From the NCBI GenBank assembly GCA_963721165.1, contig CAVRIE010000009.1, forward strand, positions 19,800-83,799: a stretch of 64,000 nt of DNA, written 5' to 3'. The translations under genes and the position numbers were made by a program. This document shows positions 5,411-12,390 of the stretch, one piece after another. Within the stretch, counting starts at the first letter, position 1. Each line of letters opens with the position of its first letter. Source of the DNA: an uncultured Actinomycetota bacterium. Its GTDB lineage: Bacteria > Actinomycetota > Actinomycetes > Propionibacteriales > Nocardioidaceae. A model generated the notes under the pieces. The model saw only the letters and a list, made by a program, of their open reading frames with translations. It ran no database searches and had not been told where the DNA came from.

Positions 5411-6950
5411 ATGGATCCAAGTGGCACAGACACGATGACCCGAGGGGCTCCGCCGGGCGATGGTGGCGCGCAGCCGGGATGGTGGTGCGCAGCCGGGCGA
5501 CGACGGGGTGGAGGTCGCGAAGGGGGAGAAGCGCCTTGCGGATCGGATCCTTCTCGACGACGCTCTCGAGGCGATGGTCGCGGAGAACCGGTCCCGGGCG
5601 ATGCGACTCGATGCGGTCAGCGAGTTCCACGCGCGCCGGGTGGCAGAGGCGGAGACGCGAGGGTCCGGTGCTCCCGGTTTCTTCGTCCTGACTCCGCTGC
5701 AGGCGACCAAGGTCGAGTTCTGCCCGCTCCTCGGCATCGGTGAGCTGATGTTGCAGTTCGACCTGGAGCTGACCGACGGTCTCAAGCAGTGGTTCCCGCG
5801 CCTGTGGCGCCGCTGCATGAAAGGTCGGCTGGACATCGGCCGGGCAAGGCTCGCCTACGACCAGCTGCAGAACCTGACCAACGACGCCGACAAGGCGGCC
5901 TTCGCGGAGCTCATCGAGGAGATGTTCGACCGGATGGACGATCCTGCCTCGCCGCTCTACCCGGTGAGCCGCACGACGTTGCAGCGCGCGATCCGCCGCA
6001 GGTGCTTGAAGTTCCCGCAGAAGAGCGAGGACGACAACTTCGGCGAGGCGTTCAAGAAGCGGCGGGTCAAGCTCGAGACCGACGAGAACGGCATGGGAAG
6101 TCTGAGCGTGAGTACGGCGGTGCACGATGCCATGACCGCCGACTACCGCCTGACCCTCATCGCCAAGAAGCTGGGCGAGGCCAAGGGCGAGACCCGCACC
6201 CTCGACCAGCGCCGCGCCGACGTGTGCATCGACCTCATCCTGGGTCGTCTGACCGTCGGAGCGACCGACGGTGAGCTCGAGGATGACAGCACGGGTGGTG
6301 GGGACGACCCAGCGGAGACCTTCGAACGCAAGCCCGTAGGCAGGTTCGCCCGGCCGATCATCAACGTGACCGTCCCGATCACGACACTGATGGGCCTGAG
6401 CGACGAGCCCGGCGTGATGGCAGGTGGCACGTCCCTCCCGGCGGACGTCACGCGGCACATCGCGACGGACCCGGACGCGACGTGGTACCGGCTCCTCACA
6501 GACCCGGCCGGCGGGTTCCTGGAGCTCTCGACGACGAGCTACACGCCGACCGATGCCATCTGGCGATGGACCGTCGCCTGCAACCAGAAGTGCATCTGGC
6601 CCGGATGCTGCCGCCCGGCGACGGTCATCGAGCTGGACCACCGAATCCGGTTCCCGCTCGGGAAGACCTCGACATGCAACCTCCAGCCGCTGTGTCGCCG
6701 ACACCATCACGTCAAGCACTCGGAGGGCTTCTCGGTCGTACTCGAGGCCGACGGGTCCTACACGTGGACGAGCCGGTTCGGGAGCACCTTCCGGACGCCG
6801 GCGCCGGAGTACCCGATCGCGGTGTGGCCCGAGGACGTGCCGGCGCCGCCCTCGGCCGAGGTGGTGGAGGCGGCGGCCAAGGTCGATCTCGCGTTCCGCT
6901 CGATCGTGGAGCGGGAGTTCGAGGCGGTGATCGTCCGGTGTCACTCCTGA
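5411..6950 (+). CDS. DUF222 (13E12 repeat family) HNH endonuclease-domain protein; probable frameshift near 5480
   Basis: RTLDQRRAD, C-terminal CIWPGC...ELDHRIRF...NLQPLCRRHHHVKH; RBS GGAGG 5401-5405 before ATG 5411; main ORF 5460..6950. Confidence 0.85.
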
Positions 6951-6984: not shown

Positions 6985-7050
6985 CGAGCTCGCCAGAGGT
7001 CGAGCGCGCCAGAGGTCGGCGGCGCCCGTCGAGATCGCCAGAGGCCGAGC
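6985..7050 (+). repeat. Short 16-bp repeats cgagNNcgccagagg (3 copies)
   Basis: Copies at 6985, 7001 and 7030. Confidence 0.6.
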
Positions 7051-7072
7051 ACGCCGTCGTAGAGTCGCTGGT

Positions 7073-7558
7073 ATGGAGCTGACGGTCGTCGAAGGAGACA
7101 TCACCCAGCAGAAGGTGGACGCGATCGTGAACGCCGCCAACGAGCGCATGCGCGGTGGCGGTGGGGTCGACGGCGCCATCCATGGCGCGGGTGGACCCGC
7201 AATCCTCCAGGACTGCATCGAGCGCTTCCCCGATGGGCTGCCCACCGGTGAGGCGGGCTGGACGACTGCCGGGAACCTCCCCGCCAAGTGGGTCATCCAC
7301 GTCGTCGGGCCGGTCTACGGCGACGGGACGCGGGACCAGCTCGTCTCCTGCTACGCCAACGCGCTCCGCGTAGCCGACGAGTTAGGGGCACGGTCGGTGG
7401 CGTTCCCGCTGGTCTCGGCTGGCGTCTACGGCTGGCCCCGAGAGGACGCGATCCGCGCGGCGGTCGACACGATCCGCGGCACGCCGACCGCTGTCTCAGA
7501 GGTCCGACTCGTGGCGTTCGGGCGTCCGACGTACGACGCCATGCAAGCCGCCCTCTGA
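7073..7558 (+). CDS. Macro-domain protein (O-acetyl-ADP-ribose deacetylase, YmdB-like)
   Basis: VEGDITQQKVDAIVNAAN..MRGGGGVDGAIH, VIHVVGPVY, SVAFPLVSAGVYGWP; TAGAGT -10 six nt upstream suggests a leaderless transcript. Confidence 0.92.
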   Translation: MELTVVEGDITQQKVDAIVNAANERMRGGGGVDGAIHGAGGPAILQDCIERFPDGLPTGEAGWTTAGNLPAKWVIHVVGPVYGDGTRDQLVSCYANALRVADELGARSVAFPLVSAGVYGWPREDAIRAAVDTIRGTPTAVSEVRLVAFGRPTYDAMQAAL

Positions 7559-7721
7559 TCGGACCGAACGGCTCATCGTTCCCAGAGCACCGGATTACCC
7601 CATTCTGAGGGTGTTCCCCCTACGTCCGGGCTTTACCGTCGAAGAGTCCACAAGACTTGCAGGGGGGCTGCGGGTGATCGATGCCTATCCCGGTGCGCGG
7701 GCGCCGGAGGGGAAGTGCACG

Positions 7722-8941
7722 ATGCGGTCCACATCTGGTCGCCGCACCCTCCGGTCCGCGGTGTCGGTCGGCCTCGCCGTTTTCGTCGTCGGTGTCACGA
7801 GCGCTGCCTACCCAGAAGGCAACGAGAACTCAGGCTCATCATCGACAGCCTCGAACGGCTCCGCCGGCAACTCGTATATCGATGGCACCCAGCCCGGCGG
7901 CGACCTCCAAACGACTGACGGCACACCAACCGGGGAACAGCCAACTGACGGGGTGTCGCCTCCGGATGTGTCTCCACCGGTCGTGGCTCCACCGGTCGTG
8001 TACTCCGCCGGTCGTGTCTCCGCCTGTTGTGACTCCGCCTGTTGTGAGCTCCGCCGGTCGTGTCTCCGCCTGTTGTGACTCCGCCGGTCGTGTCTCCGCC
8101 TGTTGTGACTCCGCCGGTTGTGTCGACCACGTCCGACTGGAACCTCAATTTCACCTACGGCACGACCAACAACGGTGTCACCACGAACGACAGTTTCAAC
8201 AACGGCAGCTTCTGCAACGGGTCGTCCTCGGACTGTCGGTGCAACGACAGTTCTCACTGTGACGGCTCGAGCTGGCGGTGCGATAGCGGGAGCTTCTGCA
8301 ACGGGTCGTCCTCGGACTGTCGGTGCAACGACAGTTCTCACTGTGACGGCTCGAGCTGTGGGTGCGATAGCGGGAGCTTCTGCAACGGGTCGTCCTCGGA
8401 CTGTCGGTGCAACGACAGTTCTCACTGTGACGGCTCGAGCTGTGGGTGCGATAGCGGGAGCTTCTGCAACGGGTCGTCCTCGGACTGTCGGTGCAACGAC
8501 AGTTCTCACTGCGACGGCTCGAACTGCCGGTGCGACAGCAACAGCGCGCACTGCGACCACTCGAACTGCCGTTGCAACAACGACAATCACTCGTCGGACG
8601 GCAACTGCGGCTGCGACCGGGACACCGGCAACTCGACGGTGACGATATCGCCGGTCGCCACCCCGACAACGGTGCCCGTCACGGTGCCTGTCACGACGCC
8701 GGTCACGGTGCCTGTCACGACGCCGGTCGAGACGACCGTTCCGGCGGCTCCCGTGGTGACCCAGGCCGCCGTGCCGGCCGTCGTGGCAGCTCCCGTGGCA
8801 GCGCCTGCGCCCGCGGCTGCCCCGAGCCAGGGGACGCTGCCCAGGGTGGGTGCCGACTCGAAGGATGACCTGTTGGCCTTCGGAGGTGCCGCGATGCTGC
8901 TCACGGGGATCGTGCTGCTGCGGCTCCAGAGAAGGACCTAA
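7722..8941 (+). CDS. Secreted Cys-rich repeat protein with LPxTG-like (LPRVG) sorting signal; two +1 indels in the VSPPV repeats
   Basis: Signal peptide MRSTSGRRTLRSAVSVGLAVFVVGVTSAAY; Pro/Val repeats; Cys-rich repeats; Thr/Pro/Ala stalk; LPRVG + hydrophobic helix + RLQRRT. Confidence 0.8.
7953..8119 (+). repeat. 15-bp tandem repeat encoding V[S/T/A]PP[V/D] x11
   Basis: gtgtctccgcctgtt / gtgactccgccggtc units; two units are 16 nt (7998, 8044). Confidence 0.9.
8204..8539 (+). repeat. 84-bp tandem repeat x4 encoding GSFCNGSSSDCRCNDSSHCDGSSCGCDS
   Basis: Unit starts at 8204, 8288, 8372, 8456. Confidence 0.95.
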
Positions 8942-9002
8942 GAGCTGGCGCCGGCCGCTACCCAATCCCACCCGGCCGGCGCTGGGATACCTCCCAAGGA
9001 AA

Positions 9003-9038
9003 GTGGGCGGCAGTCTCTCAGTCGAGACTGCCGCCCAC
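9003..9038 (+). terminator. Terminator hairpin, copy 1
   Basis: gtgggcggcagtctc-tcagtc-gagactgccgcccac, 15-bp stem. Confidence 0.8.
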
Positions 9039-9265
9039 GGTTCGTTGTGAGGGTGCGGTGGACGGTCCCCCAAGCGACCGACGCCCACGCGTCTTTGGTG
9101 AAGACGGTGAGTCTGGCCTTCCCGCACCAGCTCGGAACTACCCGATTTTGAGGGCGCCTTTACTTACTTCGCGCTTTAGCGTCCCACAGGCAAAGGAGGC
9201 TTGCGCGGAGCTGCGTGCGAGCGACGACGATCCCGGCTCATTGTGCCGGAGGGTGGAGAAGCGTC

Positions 9266-10295
9266 ATGCATTGCTTACGTACTCGCGGGCATACGTTCCG
9301 CGCTGTCGCATCGGTCGGAATGGCCGTGTTCGTGCTCGGAGTCACCAGTCCGTCCTACGCCGACGACGGCAACGGCTCCCATGGGAACTCGTCTCACCAG
9401 GAGAAGTGGGCCGGCGAGAACTCGGCGGCGGCAACTGGGACGGCGGGAAGTCCGGCGGCGACAACTGGGATGGGGGAAGTCCGACGGCGGCAAGGAGTCC
9501 GGCTGGGACGGGGGAGAAGTCCGGCGGCGACAACTGGGACAGCGAGGAGTCCGGCTGGGACGGGGAGAAGTCCGGCGGCGACAACTGGGGCAGCGAGGAG
9601 TCCGGCTGGGACGGCGAGAAGTCCGGCGGCGACAAGGAGTCCGGCTGGGACGGGGAGAAGTCCGGCGGCGACAAGGAGTCCGGCTGGGACGGGGAGAAGT
9701 CCGGCCGTGACAAGTGGCACGGAGAGGACCACGGGGACAAGGACCACGGGGACAAGGACCACGGGGACAAGGACCACGGGGACAAGGAGCACGGGGACAA
9801 GGACCACGGGGACAAGGAGCACGGGGACAGGGACGCACGGGGACAAGGAGCACGGGGACAAGGAGCACGGGGACAAGGACCACGGGGACAAGGACCACGG
9901 GGACAAGGAGCACGGGGACAAGGAGCACGGCGACAAGGACCACGGGGACAAGGACCACGGCGACAAGGAGCACGGCGACAAGGACGACGAGGAAGAGTGC
10001 GAGTGCCCGAAGGAGGAGAAGCCTGAGAGAGGAGGTCCCGCCCGCTGAGCAGCCTCAGGAGCAGCCCGCTCCGCCCGAGGCCGTCCCGGCTGAGCAGCCC
10101 GCGCCTCCTGCGGAGGTCCCTGCCGCGCCGGCCGTCGCACCGGCCCCCGAGGCAGCGCCTGCCCCGGCCGCAGTGGCTCCGACCCAGGCTCTGCCGTCGG
10201 TCGGTGCCGACCCGGTGGACGAGGCCCTGGCGTTCGTAGGGGCCGGGATGGTGCTCTCGGGAGCCACCCTGCTGTGGCGTCGCAGAAGGGCTTGA
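9266..10295 (+). CDS. Secreted His/Trp/acidic repeat protein with LPxTG-like (LPSVG) sorting signal; several indels within the repeats
   Basis: Signal peptide MHCLRTRGHTFRAVASVGMAVFVLGVTSPSYA; ESGWDGEKSGGD repeats; HGDK[DE] repeats; Pro/Ala/Glu stalk; LPSVG + hydrophobic helix + WRRRRA. Confidence 0.8.
9430..9717 (+). repeat. 39/51-bp repeats encoding ESGWDGEKSGGD(K / NW[D/G]SE)
   Basis: gagtccggctgggacggggagaagtccggcggcgac repeated. Confidence 0.85.
9718..9985 (+). repeat. 15-bp tandem repeat cacggggacaagga[c/g] encoding HGDK[D/E] x17 after a leading HGED
   Basis: Counted directly; the unit at 9820-9835 is 16 nt. Confidence 0.95.
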
Positions 10296-10356
10296 GATCT
10301 GGCGCCGATCGCTGACCAGACCCAACCCGGCCGGCGCGCAGCAAGCTCACATGGAA

Positions 10357-10392
10357 GTGGGCGGCAGTCTCTCAGTCGGGACTGCCGCCCAC
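10357..10392 (+). terminator. Terminator hairpin, copy 2 (near-identical to 9003-9038)
   Basis: gtgggcggcagtctc-tcagtc-gggactgccgcccac, followed by ggggtttg. Confidence 0.8.
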
Positions 10393-10401
10393 GGGGTTTG
10401 C

Positions 10402-10434
10402 GCGGTGGTTGGTTTCGACAGGCTCAACCACCGC
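10402..10434. repeat. REP-like palindromic element (GGTTTCGACAGGCTCAACCA type)
   Basis: gcggtggttg-gtttcgacaggct-caaccaccgc; related copy at 63905-63928. Confidence 0.7.
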
Positions 10435-10441
10435 TGCCGCG

Positions 10442-11200
10442 CTAGCGGGGGGCCATGCGCAGGGCGCCGTCCATCCGGATGACCTCGCCGTTGAGGTAGT
10501 CGTGGTTGATGATCGTGAGGGCGAGCTGGGCGTACTCCTCGGGCCGGCCGAGCCGCTGCGGGAACGGCACGCCCGCGGCGAGCGCCGCCCGGAACTCCTC
10601 GGCCACCGTCGCGAGCATCGGGGTCTCCACGATGCCGGGTGCGATCGTGCAGACCCGGATGCCGTACTGCGCGAGGTCCCGCGCGGCCGGGAGGGTGAGC
10701 CCGACGATGCCGCCCTTCGAGGAGGCGTACGCCGCCTGGCCGACCTGACCGTCGTACGCCGCGATGCTCGCGGTGTTGATGATGACGCCGCGCTGGTTGA
10801 ACTCGTCGCCCTCGGTCTTCGCGATCTCCTCCGAGGCGACCGCGAGCACGTTGAAGGTGCCGACCAGGTTCACCTGCACGACCTTGGCGTAGAACCCGAG
10901 GTCGTGGACGCCCTTCTTGCCGAGGATCCGCATCGACGGGCCGATGCCGGCGCAGTTCACGACCGTCCGCAGGGGTACGTCGGACGCTGCCGCCTGTGCG
11001 ACGCCGGCGCGGACCTGCTCCTCGTCGGTGACGTCCACCGCGACGTACTCGAGGCCCTTCACCTCAGGCGCGTTGTCGATCGACTGCGGCAGGTCGAACG
11101 CGAAGACCTTCGCGCCCTGGTCGACCAGGGCCGCGGCCGTCGCGGCGCCCAGGCCGGATGCGCCTCCGGTGACGATCGCGGCGGTGTTCTCGAGCTTCAT
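10442..11200 (-). CDS. SDR, type II 3-hydroxyacyl-CoA dehydrogenase (HSD10-like)
   Basis: TGGASGLG, NCAGIG, RGVIINTASIAAYDGQVGQAAYASSKGG, DGALRM. Confidence 0.9.
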   Translation of the reverse strand: MKLENTAAIVTGGASGLGAATAAALVDQGAKVFAFDLPQSIDNAPEVKGLEYVAVDVTDEEQVRAGVAQAAASDVPLRTVVNCAGIGPSMRILGKKGVHDLGFYAKVVQVNLVGTFNVLAVASEEIAKTEGDEFNQRGVIINTASIAAYDGQVGQAAYASSKGGIVGLTLPAARDLAQYGIRVCTIAPGIVETPMLATVAEEFRAALAAGVPFPQRLGRPEEYAQLALTIINHDYLNGEVIRMDGALRMAPR

Positions 11201-12390
11201 CAGTTGTTCTCCTGTGTCGTCGGGCGGCTGACCGTGACCGACCCCTTGTTCTCGCGGTCGAGGTGGCGGGCGATCACCATCCGCTGGATCTGGTTCGTGC
11301 CCTCGAAGATCTGCATCACCTTCGCCTCGCGCATGTAGCGCTCGACGGGGAAGTCACGGGTGTAGCCGTACCCGCCGAGCACCTGCACCGCGTCGGTCGT
11401 GACCTTCATGGCGTTGTCGGTTGCGACCATCTTCGCGATGCTCGCCTCCCGGCTGAACGGCAGCCCCTGGTCCTTGCGGCGGGCCGCGGCCAGGACGGTC
11501 GCCCGGGCGGACTCCACGGCCGCGGCCATGTCGGCGAGCACGAACGCGAGCCCCTGGTGCTCGATGATCGGCCTGCCGAAGGTCTCACGCTCCTTGGCGT
11601 AGGCGACCGCCGTGTCCAGCGCGCCCTGCGCGAGGCCGGTCGCCACCGCGGCGATCCCGAGCCGGCCCGAGTCGAGGCCCTCCAGCGCGATCCGAAGGCC
11701 TTCACCCTCGGCGCCGAGCCGCCGCTCGACGGGGATGCGCACGTTCTCGAACCGCATGGTCGCCGTCGCGGACCCGGTGAGGCCCATCTTCCGCTCCGGC
11801 GCGTCGGCGACCAGGCCGGGCGTGTCGGCCGGGACCAGGAAGCACGAGATGCCGTTGCGGTCGTCGCTGGTGCGGGCCATCACCTTGTAGAAGTCGGCGT
11901 ACCCGCCGTGGGTGGTCCACGCCTTCGCGCCGTTCAGCACGTACTCGTCGCCCTCGCGGACCGCCCGCGTCCTCATCGTCGCGGGGTCGGAGCCGGCGTG
12001 GGCCTCGGAGAGGCAGTACGCCCCGAGCTGCTCGCCGCTCAGCATCCCGGGGAGCCAGCGCTGCTTCTGCTCCTCGGTGCCACGGGTGAACAGGCCGAAG
12101 CACGACAGGGCGTGCACCGAGACGCCGACCCCGACGGAGGACCAGACCGCCCCGATCTCCTCGAGGACCTGGAGGTAGACCTCGTACGGCTGACCCCCTC
12201 CGCCGTACTCCTCGGGGTAGGGGAGGCTCAGCAGCCCCGCCCGGCCGAGGGTCCGGAACACCTCGCGCGGGAAGGTCTCGGTGGCCTCGGCCTCCGCGAC
12301 CGGCGGAGCGAGCTCCTTCAGGGCCAGGTCGCGGGTGAGCTCGATCAGGTCGGCTGCCTCTTCGGTGGGCATGACGCGCGTTGCGGGCAT
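11200..12390 (-). CDS. Acyl-CoA dehydrogenase
   Basis: AYCLSEAHAGSD, LNGAKAWTT, RETFG, VQVLGGYGY, IFEGTNQIQR. Confidence 0.93.
   Translation of the reverse strand: MPATRVMPTEEAADLIELTRDLALKELAPPVAEAEATETFPREVFRTLGRAGLLSLPYPEEYGGGGQPYEVYLQVLEEIGAVWSSVGVGVSVHALSCFGLFTRGTEEQKQRWLPGMLSGEQLGAYCLSEAHAGSDPATMRTRAVREGDEYVLNGAKAWTTHGGYADFYKVMARTSDDRNGISCFLVPADTPGLVADAPERKMGLTGSATATMRFENVRIPVERRLGAEGEGLRIALEGLDSGRLGIAAVATGLAQGALDTAVAYAKERETFGRPIIEHQGLAFVLADMAAAVESARATVLAAARRKDQGLPFSREASIAKMVATDNAMKVTTDAVQVLGGYGYTRDFPVERYMREAKVMQIFEGTNQIQRMVIARHLDRENKGSVTVSRPTTQENN

Follow-up and report, generated by a model that had tools for sequence, protein, structure and literature searches.

In the 64,000-nt stretch of an uncultured Nocardioidaceae genome analysed here (the window; contig CAVRIE010000009.1, or G000:C9:19800-83799 of the organism's own 4.36-Mb, 18-contig assembly, G000), two neighbouring genes between a macro-domain gene and an SDR gene encode repeat-rich proteins with homologous ends and unrelated centres. 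On balance we read these genes as two tandem paralogues for lineage-specific, Sec-exported, sortase-type surface proteins at a hypervariable locus, with the frame breaks that interrupt both of them being an artefact.

The two genes lie in two plus-strand units (7590-9050 and 9130-10392) that are built in the same order. Each unit starts with a leader of ~130 nt containing a conserved box, followed by a GGAGG-type ribosome-binding site, an ATG and a signal-peptide-like N terminus. After the repeats, each continues with a Pro/Ala/Thr stalk, a pentapeptide, a hydrophobic helix, an Arg-rich end, a stop codon and a 3′ untranslated region (UTR) of ~100 nt. The features of the two units are as follows; repeat periods are from Tandem Repeats Finder (TRF).

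7590-7721, plus strand: leader of gene 1, with the box TTACCCCATTCTGAGGGTG at 7595-7613 and the ribosome-binding site GGAGGGGAAG at 7706-7715
7722-8941, plus strand: gene 1, surface protein with Cys repeats, stitched length 405 aa, spanning the open reading frames 7611-8078 and 8060-8941
7722-7808, plus strand: signal peptide of gene 1, MRSTSGRRTLRSAVSVGLAVFVVGVTSAAY, with a basic N-region, a hydrophobic core and small residues (by eye)
7953-8124, plus strand: PPVV[S/T] array, 15 nt × 11.3, with one extra base in 2 of 11 units
8203-8578, plus strand: Cys-rich repeats, four copies of the 84-nt unit SFCNGSSSDCRCNDSSHCDGSSCGCDSG and degenerate units
8640-8836, plus strand: Thr/Pro/Val/Ala stalk of gene 1, from the translation; it aligns with the stalks of gene 2 and of a relative, G004
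8837-8938, plus strand: sorting-type tail of gene 1 (LPRVG, hydrophobic helix, RLQRRT), ending in LLAFGGAAMLLTGIVLLRLQRRT and the stop codon
8942-9050, plus strand: 3′ UTR of gene 1, with a hairpin at 8945-8985 and a terminator-like hairpin at 9003-9038; fold −73.7 kcal/mol
9130-9265, plus strand: leader of gene 2, with the box CTACCCGATTTTGAGGGCG at 9138-9156 and the ribosome-binding site at 9248-9261
9266-10295, plus strand: gene 2, surface protein with Trp/Gly/acidic and HGDK[D/E] repeats, stitched length 342 aa
9407-9714, plus strand: Trp/Gly/acidic repeats of the EKSGGDNWDSEESGWDG type, periods of 51 and 39 nt at 96%
9725-9993, plus strand: HGDK[D/E] array, 15 nt × 17.9, with 17 perfect units once the G at 9835 is removed
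10191-10292, plus strand: sorting-type tail of gene 2 (LPSVG, hydrophobic helix, WRRRRA), ending in ALAFVGAGMVLSGATLLWRRRRA and the stop codon
10296-10392, plus strand: 3′ UTR of gene 2, with a hairpin at 10357-10392

Homologous ends and unrelated centres

The two units were compared by local alignment, with z scores calculated against dinucleotide shuffles. The leaders were identical at 71 of 94 positions (z = 9.5), the regions coding for the stalk and sorting tail at 123 of 158 (z = 17) and the 3′ UTRs at 82 of 98 (z = 38); for the signal-peptide coding regions z was 7. In contrast, the alignment of the centres gave a z of 1.3, i.e. no similarity, and both centres consist of tandem arrays that differ between the genes. 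The shared ends and the unrelated repeat centres are thus real and significant. Both had been proposed in an earlier note made from the sequence of this stretch, which described homologous leaders, signal peptides, stalks, tails and 3′ hairpins around unrelated central domains, and the peptides that it quoted lie where it had placed them.

At the N termini of both proteins there is a basic N-region followed by a hydrophobic core (ending in AVSVGLAVFVVGVTSAAY in gene 1 and VASVGMAVFVLGVTSPSYA in gene 2), which by eye is of the Sec type and is homologous to the signal peptides of relatives. At the C termini, both have a hydrophobic segment and then a tail with positive charge.

The 84-nt array of gene 1 is present in 4.0 copies at 96% identity (8203-8539), each unit encoding 28 aa with six Cys, and the stitched protein contains 28 Cys and nine CxC motifs. 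In gene 2, the 51- and 39-nt Trp/Gly/acidic units detected by TRF span 9493-9714, and His recurs at every fifth residue over the 17 units of the second array. The stitched gene 2 protein has 22 His, 17 HGD[KR][DE] units, 12 Trp and 86 Asp plus Glu residues (25%). The 28 Cys and the approximately 18 HGDK units counted in the earlier note are exactly those of the stitched proteins and hold for these only. Neither gene is a single open reading frame: two frame changes in gene 1 and five in gene 2 have to be crossed to join the signal peptide, repeats and anchor.

The repeat heads matched no family in Pfam, NCBIfam, PDB or Rfam, in line with the earlier note, which did not recognise a described family in them. 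A protein homologue search with stitched gene 1 returned low-complexity candidates and no true relatives. When the open reading frame at 8060-8938 was compared with 1.8 billion protein representatives, there were 11 weak matches, all of them compositional (unrelated Cys-rich or Thr/Pro-rich proteins). The AlphaFold2 single-sequence model of the same open reading frame was uninformative (pLDDT 43.6) and was not used. Most of gene 1 (7542-8573) scores as non-coding under a codon-usage model of its own genome, and its G+C content of 0.62 is below that of the surroundings; both probably reflect a composition rich in Ser, Asn, Cys and Asp. On the opposite strand, the open reading frame at 7808-9127 (439 aa) was rejected as a shadow of the repeats, being Arg-rich and antisense to them, with a coding signal restricted to a short stretch antisense to the stalk.

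A protein-guided metagenome scan with gene 2 gave three loci and no true orthologue. One of the three (L138:577-2211, contig Ga0068861_100088570) encodes a small secreted protein rich in His, Glu, Lys and Asn, with an LASTG tail, directly 5′ of a sortase gene. This is another natural His-rich sortase substrate, unrelated in sequence to gene 2.

Within its own genome the leader box occurs only 5′ of genes 1 and 2, and elsewhere it is found 5′ of the gene 1 orthologue in G004, whose leader is also similar to that of gene 1. A scan of 7000-10600 against Rfam (E ≤ 1) gave two chance matches on the minus strand and no riboswitch or leader family, and a sigma-70 promoter scan gave no hit. The consensus fold of the three leaders has a few compensatory pairs, but three sequences are too few for a conclusion.

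At the other end of each unit, the hairpins at 9003-9038 and 10357-10392 are both 36 nt long with a 15-bp stem. The gene 2 hairpin occupies the position of a bidirectional terminator that relatives share with the convergent SDR gene, and this hairpin, GGGCGGCAG..CTGCCGCCC, is conserved between the surface-protein and SDR genes across the genus. Wherever the locus holds two genes, the terminator hairpin has been copied along with the gene. When metagenome contigs were searched for exact copies of the hairpin, none was found.

Related genes at the same locus

The macro-domain gene is present in 21 of 27 genomes of the genus, and the DNA downstream of it was examined for 19. The order from the macro-domain gene to the SDR gene is retained in about 20 genomes, with similar signal peptides, stalks, tails and terminators in the intervening genes. 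In the window, the neighbours of the surface-protein interval are:

ends at 7558, plus strand: macro-domain gene, 5′ neighbour
10442-11200, minus strand: SDR gene, convergent 3′ neighbour
11200-12390, minus strand: acyl-CoA dehydrogenase gene, beyond the SDR gene

Most relatives have a single LPXTG gene between the macro-domain and SDR genes, with a variable Pro-rich stalk after a conserved domain of ~90 aa that contains six invariant Cys (PQP.SNAD..GGANG.CPGGPYCST..GKPCAGCVGKADNKNPKGQ..GYECD..NPAHTGC). This domain of LPXTG proteins matched nothing in Pfam, NCBIfam or PDB and is apparently undescribed. It occurs at 227 loci in Actinomycetota, among Nocardioidaceae, Frankiaceae, Pseudonocardiales, Mycobacteriales and Acidimicrobiales. 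Genes 1 and 2 lack it; in a tblastn search its sole location in G000 was on another contig (G000:C16:63455-64505), in a gene that is also frameshifted.

Three head types are carried at the loci of the genus, often in tandem. G004 has two intact genes, one encoding a 280-aa LPPTG protein of the conserved-domain type (L016:5485-6327) and the other a 515-aa LPATG protein, A-prime, which is the orthologue of gene 1. The DNA of the leader and signal peptide is ~70% identical between gene 1 and the A-prime gene, and the proteins match over the Cys repeats, stalk and tail with an E value of 7e-18 (second match, 8e-10). A-prime is thus a single protein with Trp motifs, Cys repeats, two DDDHHGDKSD units and repeats of Gly/Thr/Asp. 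The resemblance of gene 2 to A-prime is confined to the signal peptide (18/21) and the tail (22/34, 65%).

The head type of gene 2 was found in three other genomes (G003/L070, G008/L080 and L106). In G003, a Trp/Asp/Arg/His/Cys-repeat LPATG gene in one frame adjoins a conserved-domain gene and shares with gene 2 an ECE(F/C)P..EVPP..EQP junction into the stalk. In G008, an Illumina metagenome-assembled genome (MAG), a single frame runs from the signal peptide through a Trp/Asp/Arg/His/Cys head to LPVTG. L106 has an HGDKD-repeat LPPTG gene that is itself frameshifted.

A-prime and the conserved-domain genes of the genus are like the window genes in locus, signal peptide, stalk, tail and terminator hairpin, and relatives differ from the window genes in the sequences and copy numbers of their repeat units and in having Thr rather than Val at the scissile (P1) position of the sorting signal. 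The earlier note had pictured a modular chassis with interchangeable payloads, and had suggested a search for other payloads in relatives. This picture is broadly right, as the same architecture carries different low-complexity or Cys-rich heads at the same locus across the genus, but the payloads are not cleanly swapped, as A-prime has both motif types. Because these motifs stand together in one protein, the window genes look like different expansions; judged from these comparisons, the heads appear to arise by differential expansion of short motifs that are able to co-occur, and not as swapped modules.

Two further features flank the interval. A palindromic repeat element, GGTTGGTTTCGACAGGCTCAACCACC, lies at 10407-10432, in the gap that separates the terminator of gene 2 from the SDR gene. 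Elements like it flank a second surface-protein pair upstream on the same contig (G000:C9), where they translate as ..GFDRLNHR... Just 5′ of the macro-domain gene is a 496-aa open reading frame (5460-6950), which by eye we take to be of the HNH endonuclease type, as in actinobacterial DUF222/13E12-repeat proteins.

Sorting signals and frame breaks

The earlier note had described sorting signals at the C termini. The tail architecture is as described, but the pentapeptides are LPRVG in gene 1 (8837-8851, with Val encoded by GTG at 8846-8848) and LPSVG in gene 2 (10191-10205, with Val encoded by GTC at 10200-10202) rather than LPXTG, and neither tail matched TIGR01167 or PF00746 at E ≤ 1. Both models do match the G004 orthologues, TIGR01167 giving 17.0 bits for the 280-aa protein and 20.1 bits for the 515-aa protein against a cut-off of 15.9.

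Among the eight sortase-type tails of G000, three have Val at P1, the third being the LPGVG of a gene that ends at 15252 on C9, 5′ of the window; the remaining five candidates have Thr. The LPGVG gene is the first member of another tandem pair of the sortase type, with an Ig-like domain, ~4-5 kb 5′ of the window start (G000:C9:14500-15800). It has a signal peptide and a compensating pair of frame changes within the Ig-like domain. The second gene of that pair has LPSTG and no signal peptide, and starts just after a palindromic repeat element.

G000 encodes one sortase (G000:C10:145943-146365), which scored 192.5 bits with the class E model NF033747 against a cut-off of 160. It is intact, with the His, TLTTC Cys and Arg residues present. 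Class E sortases cut both LPETG and LAETG (PMC5148588). The Val at P1 could be a real variant in specificity, could form an uncleavable tail that tethers the protein to the membrane, or could be a product of decay. The display of the gene 1 and gene 2 products on the wall of this organism is uncertain, because P1 is Val and because the frames are interrupted in this assembly.

As sequenced, the signal peptide and anchor of each gene are out of frame, with seven breaks over the two genes. Gene 1 is in frame 0 at 7722-8001, in frame 1 at ~8003-8047 and in frame 2 to the stop at 8941. The changes coincide with two 16-nt units (7998-8013 and 8044-8059) in the otherwise 15-nt array, each with one extra base; because of these extra bases, the Cys repeats and anchor are read in frame 2 and the signal peptide in frame 0. 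The path of gene 2 begins in frame 2 at the ATG (9266) and moves to frame 1 at ~9424, to frame 0 at ~9477 (in a G-run), to frame 1 at ~9512 (in a G-run), to frame 2 at the extra G at 9835 and to frame 0 at ~10028, reaching the stop at 10295. A codon-usage Viterbi path that is independent of the stitching recovered f2>f1>f0>f1>f2; the last change comes from the manual stitch alone.

The breaks in these two genes have many counterparts elsewhere in the assembly. A six-frame codon-likelihood Viterbi scan of the whole G000 genome for same-strand frame switches gave 1731 switches, 726 of which left the old frame open for at least 24 nt past the switch. Under stringent criteria there were 210, on nearly every contig and without homopolymer enrichment. 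We did not use the excess of insertions among these (179/210), since the filter for a long open continuation favours insertions in a high-GC genome. In the cases sampled, single Pfam or NCBIfam models were split over two frames: SpoIIE (profile positions 2-92 and 100-189), AcrB (462-686 and 690-908), PLP decarboxylase (8-178 and 226-361), CarB (174-467 and 479-769) and GcvP (383-674 and 680-939). Other ordinary genes with breaks include an SMC-like gene and an acyl-CoA dehydrogenase gene. Within the window there are at least eight further split genes, at ~3137, 12859, 18410, 22141, 22531, 40588 (a TypA-like GTPase), 41908 and 47986.

It is unlikely that all of these split genes have been lost from a free-living actinobacterium, and the assembly therefore has a substantial rate of single-base consensus error. 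From its error profile, G000 is probably an error-prone, long-read metagenome assembly. Many of the relatives retrieved from public genomes are Nanopore-only soil MAGs (records MFD...), whose source paper describes Flye assembly and one round of Medaka (PMC12313526).

Every break in genes 1 and 2 is a one-base departure from the repeat consensus. On both sides of the break in the HGDK array, the units vary at third codon positions only, apart from one K>R change beside the break. Because this pattern of variation is kept on either side, the breaks fit an artefact or a very recent change and not an old pseudogene. We consider it probable that all seven are consensus errors rather than biology.

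Several observations weigh against this reading. Seven breaks in 2.2 kb is a density ~20 times that of the genome as a whole (~1 per 6-8 kb), and six of the eight sortase-type genes of G000 are broken. The 88 tails at related loci have Thr (86) or Ala (2) at P1 and never Val, and all characterised sortases cleave after Thr, between Thr and Gly (PMC5148588). Finally, Thr>Val requires two substitutions in each gene, unlike indel-type errors, and no consistent nucleotide context was found by which systematic miscalling of bases could account for it.

These points are also what favours the strongest alternative, namely that both genes are real, decaying pseudogenes with degenerate LPxVG sorting signals, in a lineage that is losing a set of its sortase substrates. 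In neither gene does the signal peptide share a frame with the anchor, the breaks are far denser than the genome mean, and the genes with Val at P1 number exactly three (C9:15252, gene 1 and gene 2), all of them with frame breaks as well. However, breaks of the same kind occur genome-wide in CarB, GcvP, SMC-like and TypA-like genes, where gene loss is implausible for a free-living actinobacterium of 4.4 Mb. Neither gene has in-frame stops, deletions or decay of repeat units, and the third-position variation of the HGDK units also argues against decay. The breaks in the sortase substrates all sit in repeats, low-complexity stalks or tandem duplicates, which is where read alignment and consensus polishing would be least reliable and co-assembled strains most divergent. 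We regard decay as unlikely.

That the frame changes are functional, toggling the surface proteins by slipped-strand phase variation or programmed ribosomal frameshifting, is highly improbable: the breaks are in tandem repeats and two of them, in G5 runs at 9477 and 9512, compensate each other, but the long homopolymer or dinucleotide tracts of phase variation are absent, five of the seven breaks are outside homopolymers, several consecutive shifts would be needed to read through either gene and identical-looking breaks are found in hundreds of ordinary genes. With hundreds of single-base breaks in G000, claims made from this assembly on the integrity of genes, on pseudogenes or on unusual motifs need read support.

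Metal binding and the function of the heads

The earlier note had also raised the possibility of a paired system for the capture of soft and borderline metals, or for adhesion. In a dedicated extracellular metal-capture system of this kind, the Cys repeats would take up soft metals (such as Cu, Cd and Zn) and the His repeats borderline metals (such as Ni, Zn and Cu). What speaks for this is composition: the 28 Cys and nine CxC of gene 1, the His at every fifth residue over 17 units and the 25% Asp plus Glu of gene 2, and a His/Asp/Trp-rich head that is present in at least four genomes of the genus, with its composition apparently maintained. Neither the sequence, nor homology, nor the neighbourhood (the macro-domain, SDR and acyl-CoA dehydrogenase genes) carries a sign of metal handling. 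Searches of Pfam, NCBIfam and PDB matched neither a metallothionein nor a histidine-triad protein, nor any other model or structure for metal binding, and in about 20 syntenic loci there was no metal transporter, sensor or resistance gene near the locus. Three Pfam rows were discarded as spurious: Methanobactin (E = 0.75), Extensin_1 (far below the cut-off) and Pentapeptide_2, a compositional repeat match that scored 23.6 bits with the open reading frame piece and 27.0 bits with the stitched protein against a cut-off of 26.4.

Nor are the two head types consistently paired in relatives: neither occurs in most species, and in G004 a single protein carries both sets of motifs. The uncertain anchoring in this genome is a further point against capture at the cell surface. 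Exported actinobacterial proteins typically pair their cysteines, and an even number of Cys in such a protein usually indicates disulfides. Because its Cys total is even and the protein is exported, the 28 Cys of gene 1 are more likely to be disulfide-bonded outside the cell than to be free metal-binding thiolates. Taken together, a dedicated metal-capture pair seems improbable to us.

For gene 2, the recurrence of a His/Asp/Trp-rich composition in several species suggests that the composition of the head is maintained, and from its sequence this head could plausibly bind divalent cations or charged surfaces. A further reading is that the frames are intact in the organism, that the genus keeps envelope-tethered, intrinsically disordered His/Asp/Trp- and Cys-rich coats which bind cations or minerals, and that LPxVG is a genuine variant, either accepted by the sortase or deliberately uncleavable and so membrane-tethered. 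We hold this, too, to be improbable; if true, such coats would be an example from nature of what poly-His surface display achieves by engineering.

Among known metal-binding proteins, gene 1 is like the metallothioneins (SmtA/BmtA) in its high Cys content and CxC motifs, and gene 2 is like His-rich proteins (Hpn and the pneumococcal histidine-triad proteins) in its regular His spacing. The window genes differ from both in matching none of their models, in being exported rather than cytosolic and in lacking a metal-related gene context, and the spacing in gene 2 is H-x4-H, not HxxHxH.

The proteins are of an ordinary wall-anchored kind, and what is new is that the repeat heads are undescribed in any family. 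One of the closest parallels is with actinobacterial substrates of class E sortases, such as the long chaplins of Streptomyces and the SrtE substrates of Actinoplanes (PMC5148588, PMC13251363). These share with the window genes the signal peptide, the Pro-rich stalk and the series of pentapeptide, hydrophobic helix and basic tail, and the single sortase of G000 is itself of class E. The window genes differ in having Val at the scissile position, in having heads unlike the chaplin or any other described domain and in having interrupted open reading frames.

Staphylococcal Sdr/Clf proteins are of the LPXTG type, with stalks of Ser-Asp dipeptide repeats and folded ligand-binding A domains. As in the window genes, much of what they expose is a long acidic repeat of low complexity that evolves fast. 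In the window genes, however, the repeats are the only head, and there is no sequence relationship.

The arrangement of the locus can be accounted for if the whole cassette (leader, signal peptide, low-complexity head, stalk, tail and terminator hairpin) duplicates as a unit while short tandem repeats expand and contract and so alter the heads; homologous ends around unrelated centres would follow from these two processes. The protein would be exported by Sec. Its retention at the envelope would then depend on the single class E sortase, or on the C-terminal helix alone if the Val at P1 blocks cleavage. The Pro/Ala/Thr stalk, long enough to cross the wall, would present a strongly charged, hydrophilic head. 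The His/Asp/Glu/Trp head of gene 2 would form a polyanionic coat, probably disordered, to which cations might bind or which might itself bind to surfaces.

For the biology of soil bacteria, the recurrent His/Asp/Trp composition is a lead, and no more than a lead, towards an interaction with cations or mineral surfaces. If the genes are intact, they add new Cys-rich and His/Asp/Trp-rich repeat heads to the sortase-type proteins of soil Nocardioidaceae, and the locus provides an example of whole-cassette duplication combined with remodelling of the heads by tandem-repeat turnover.

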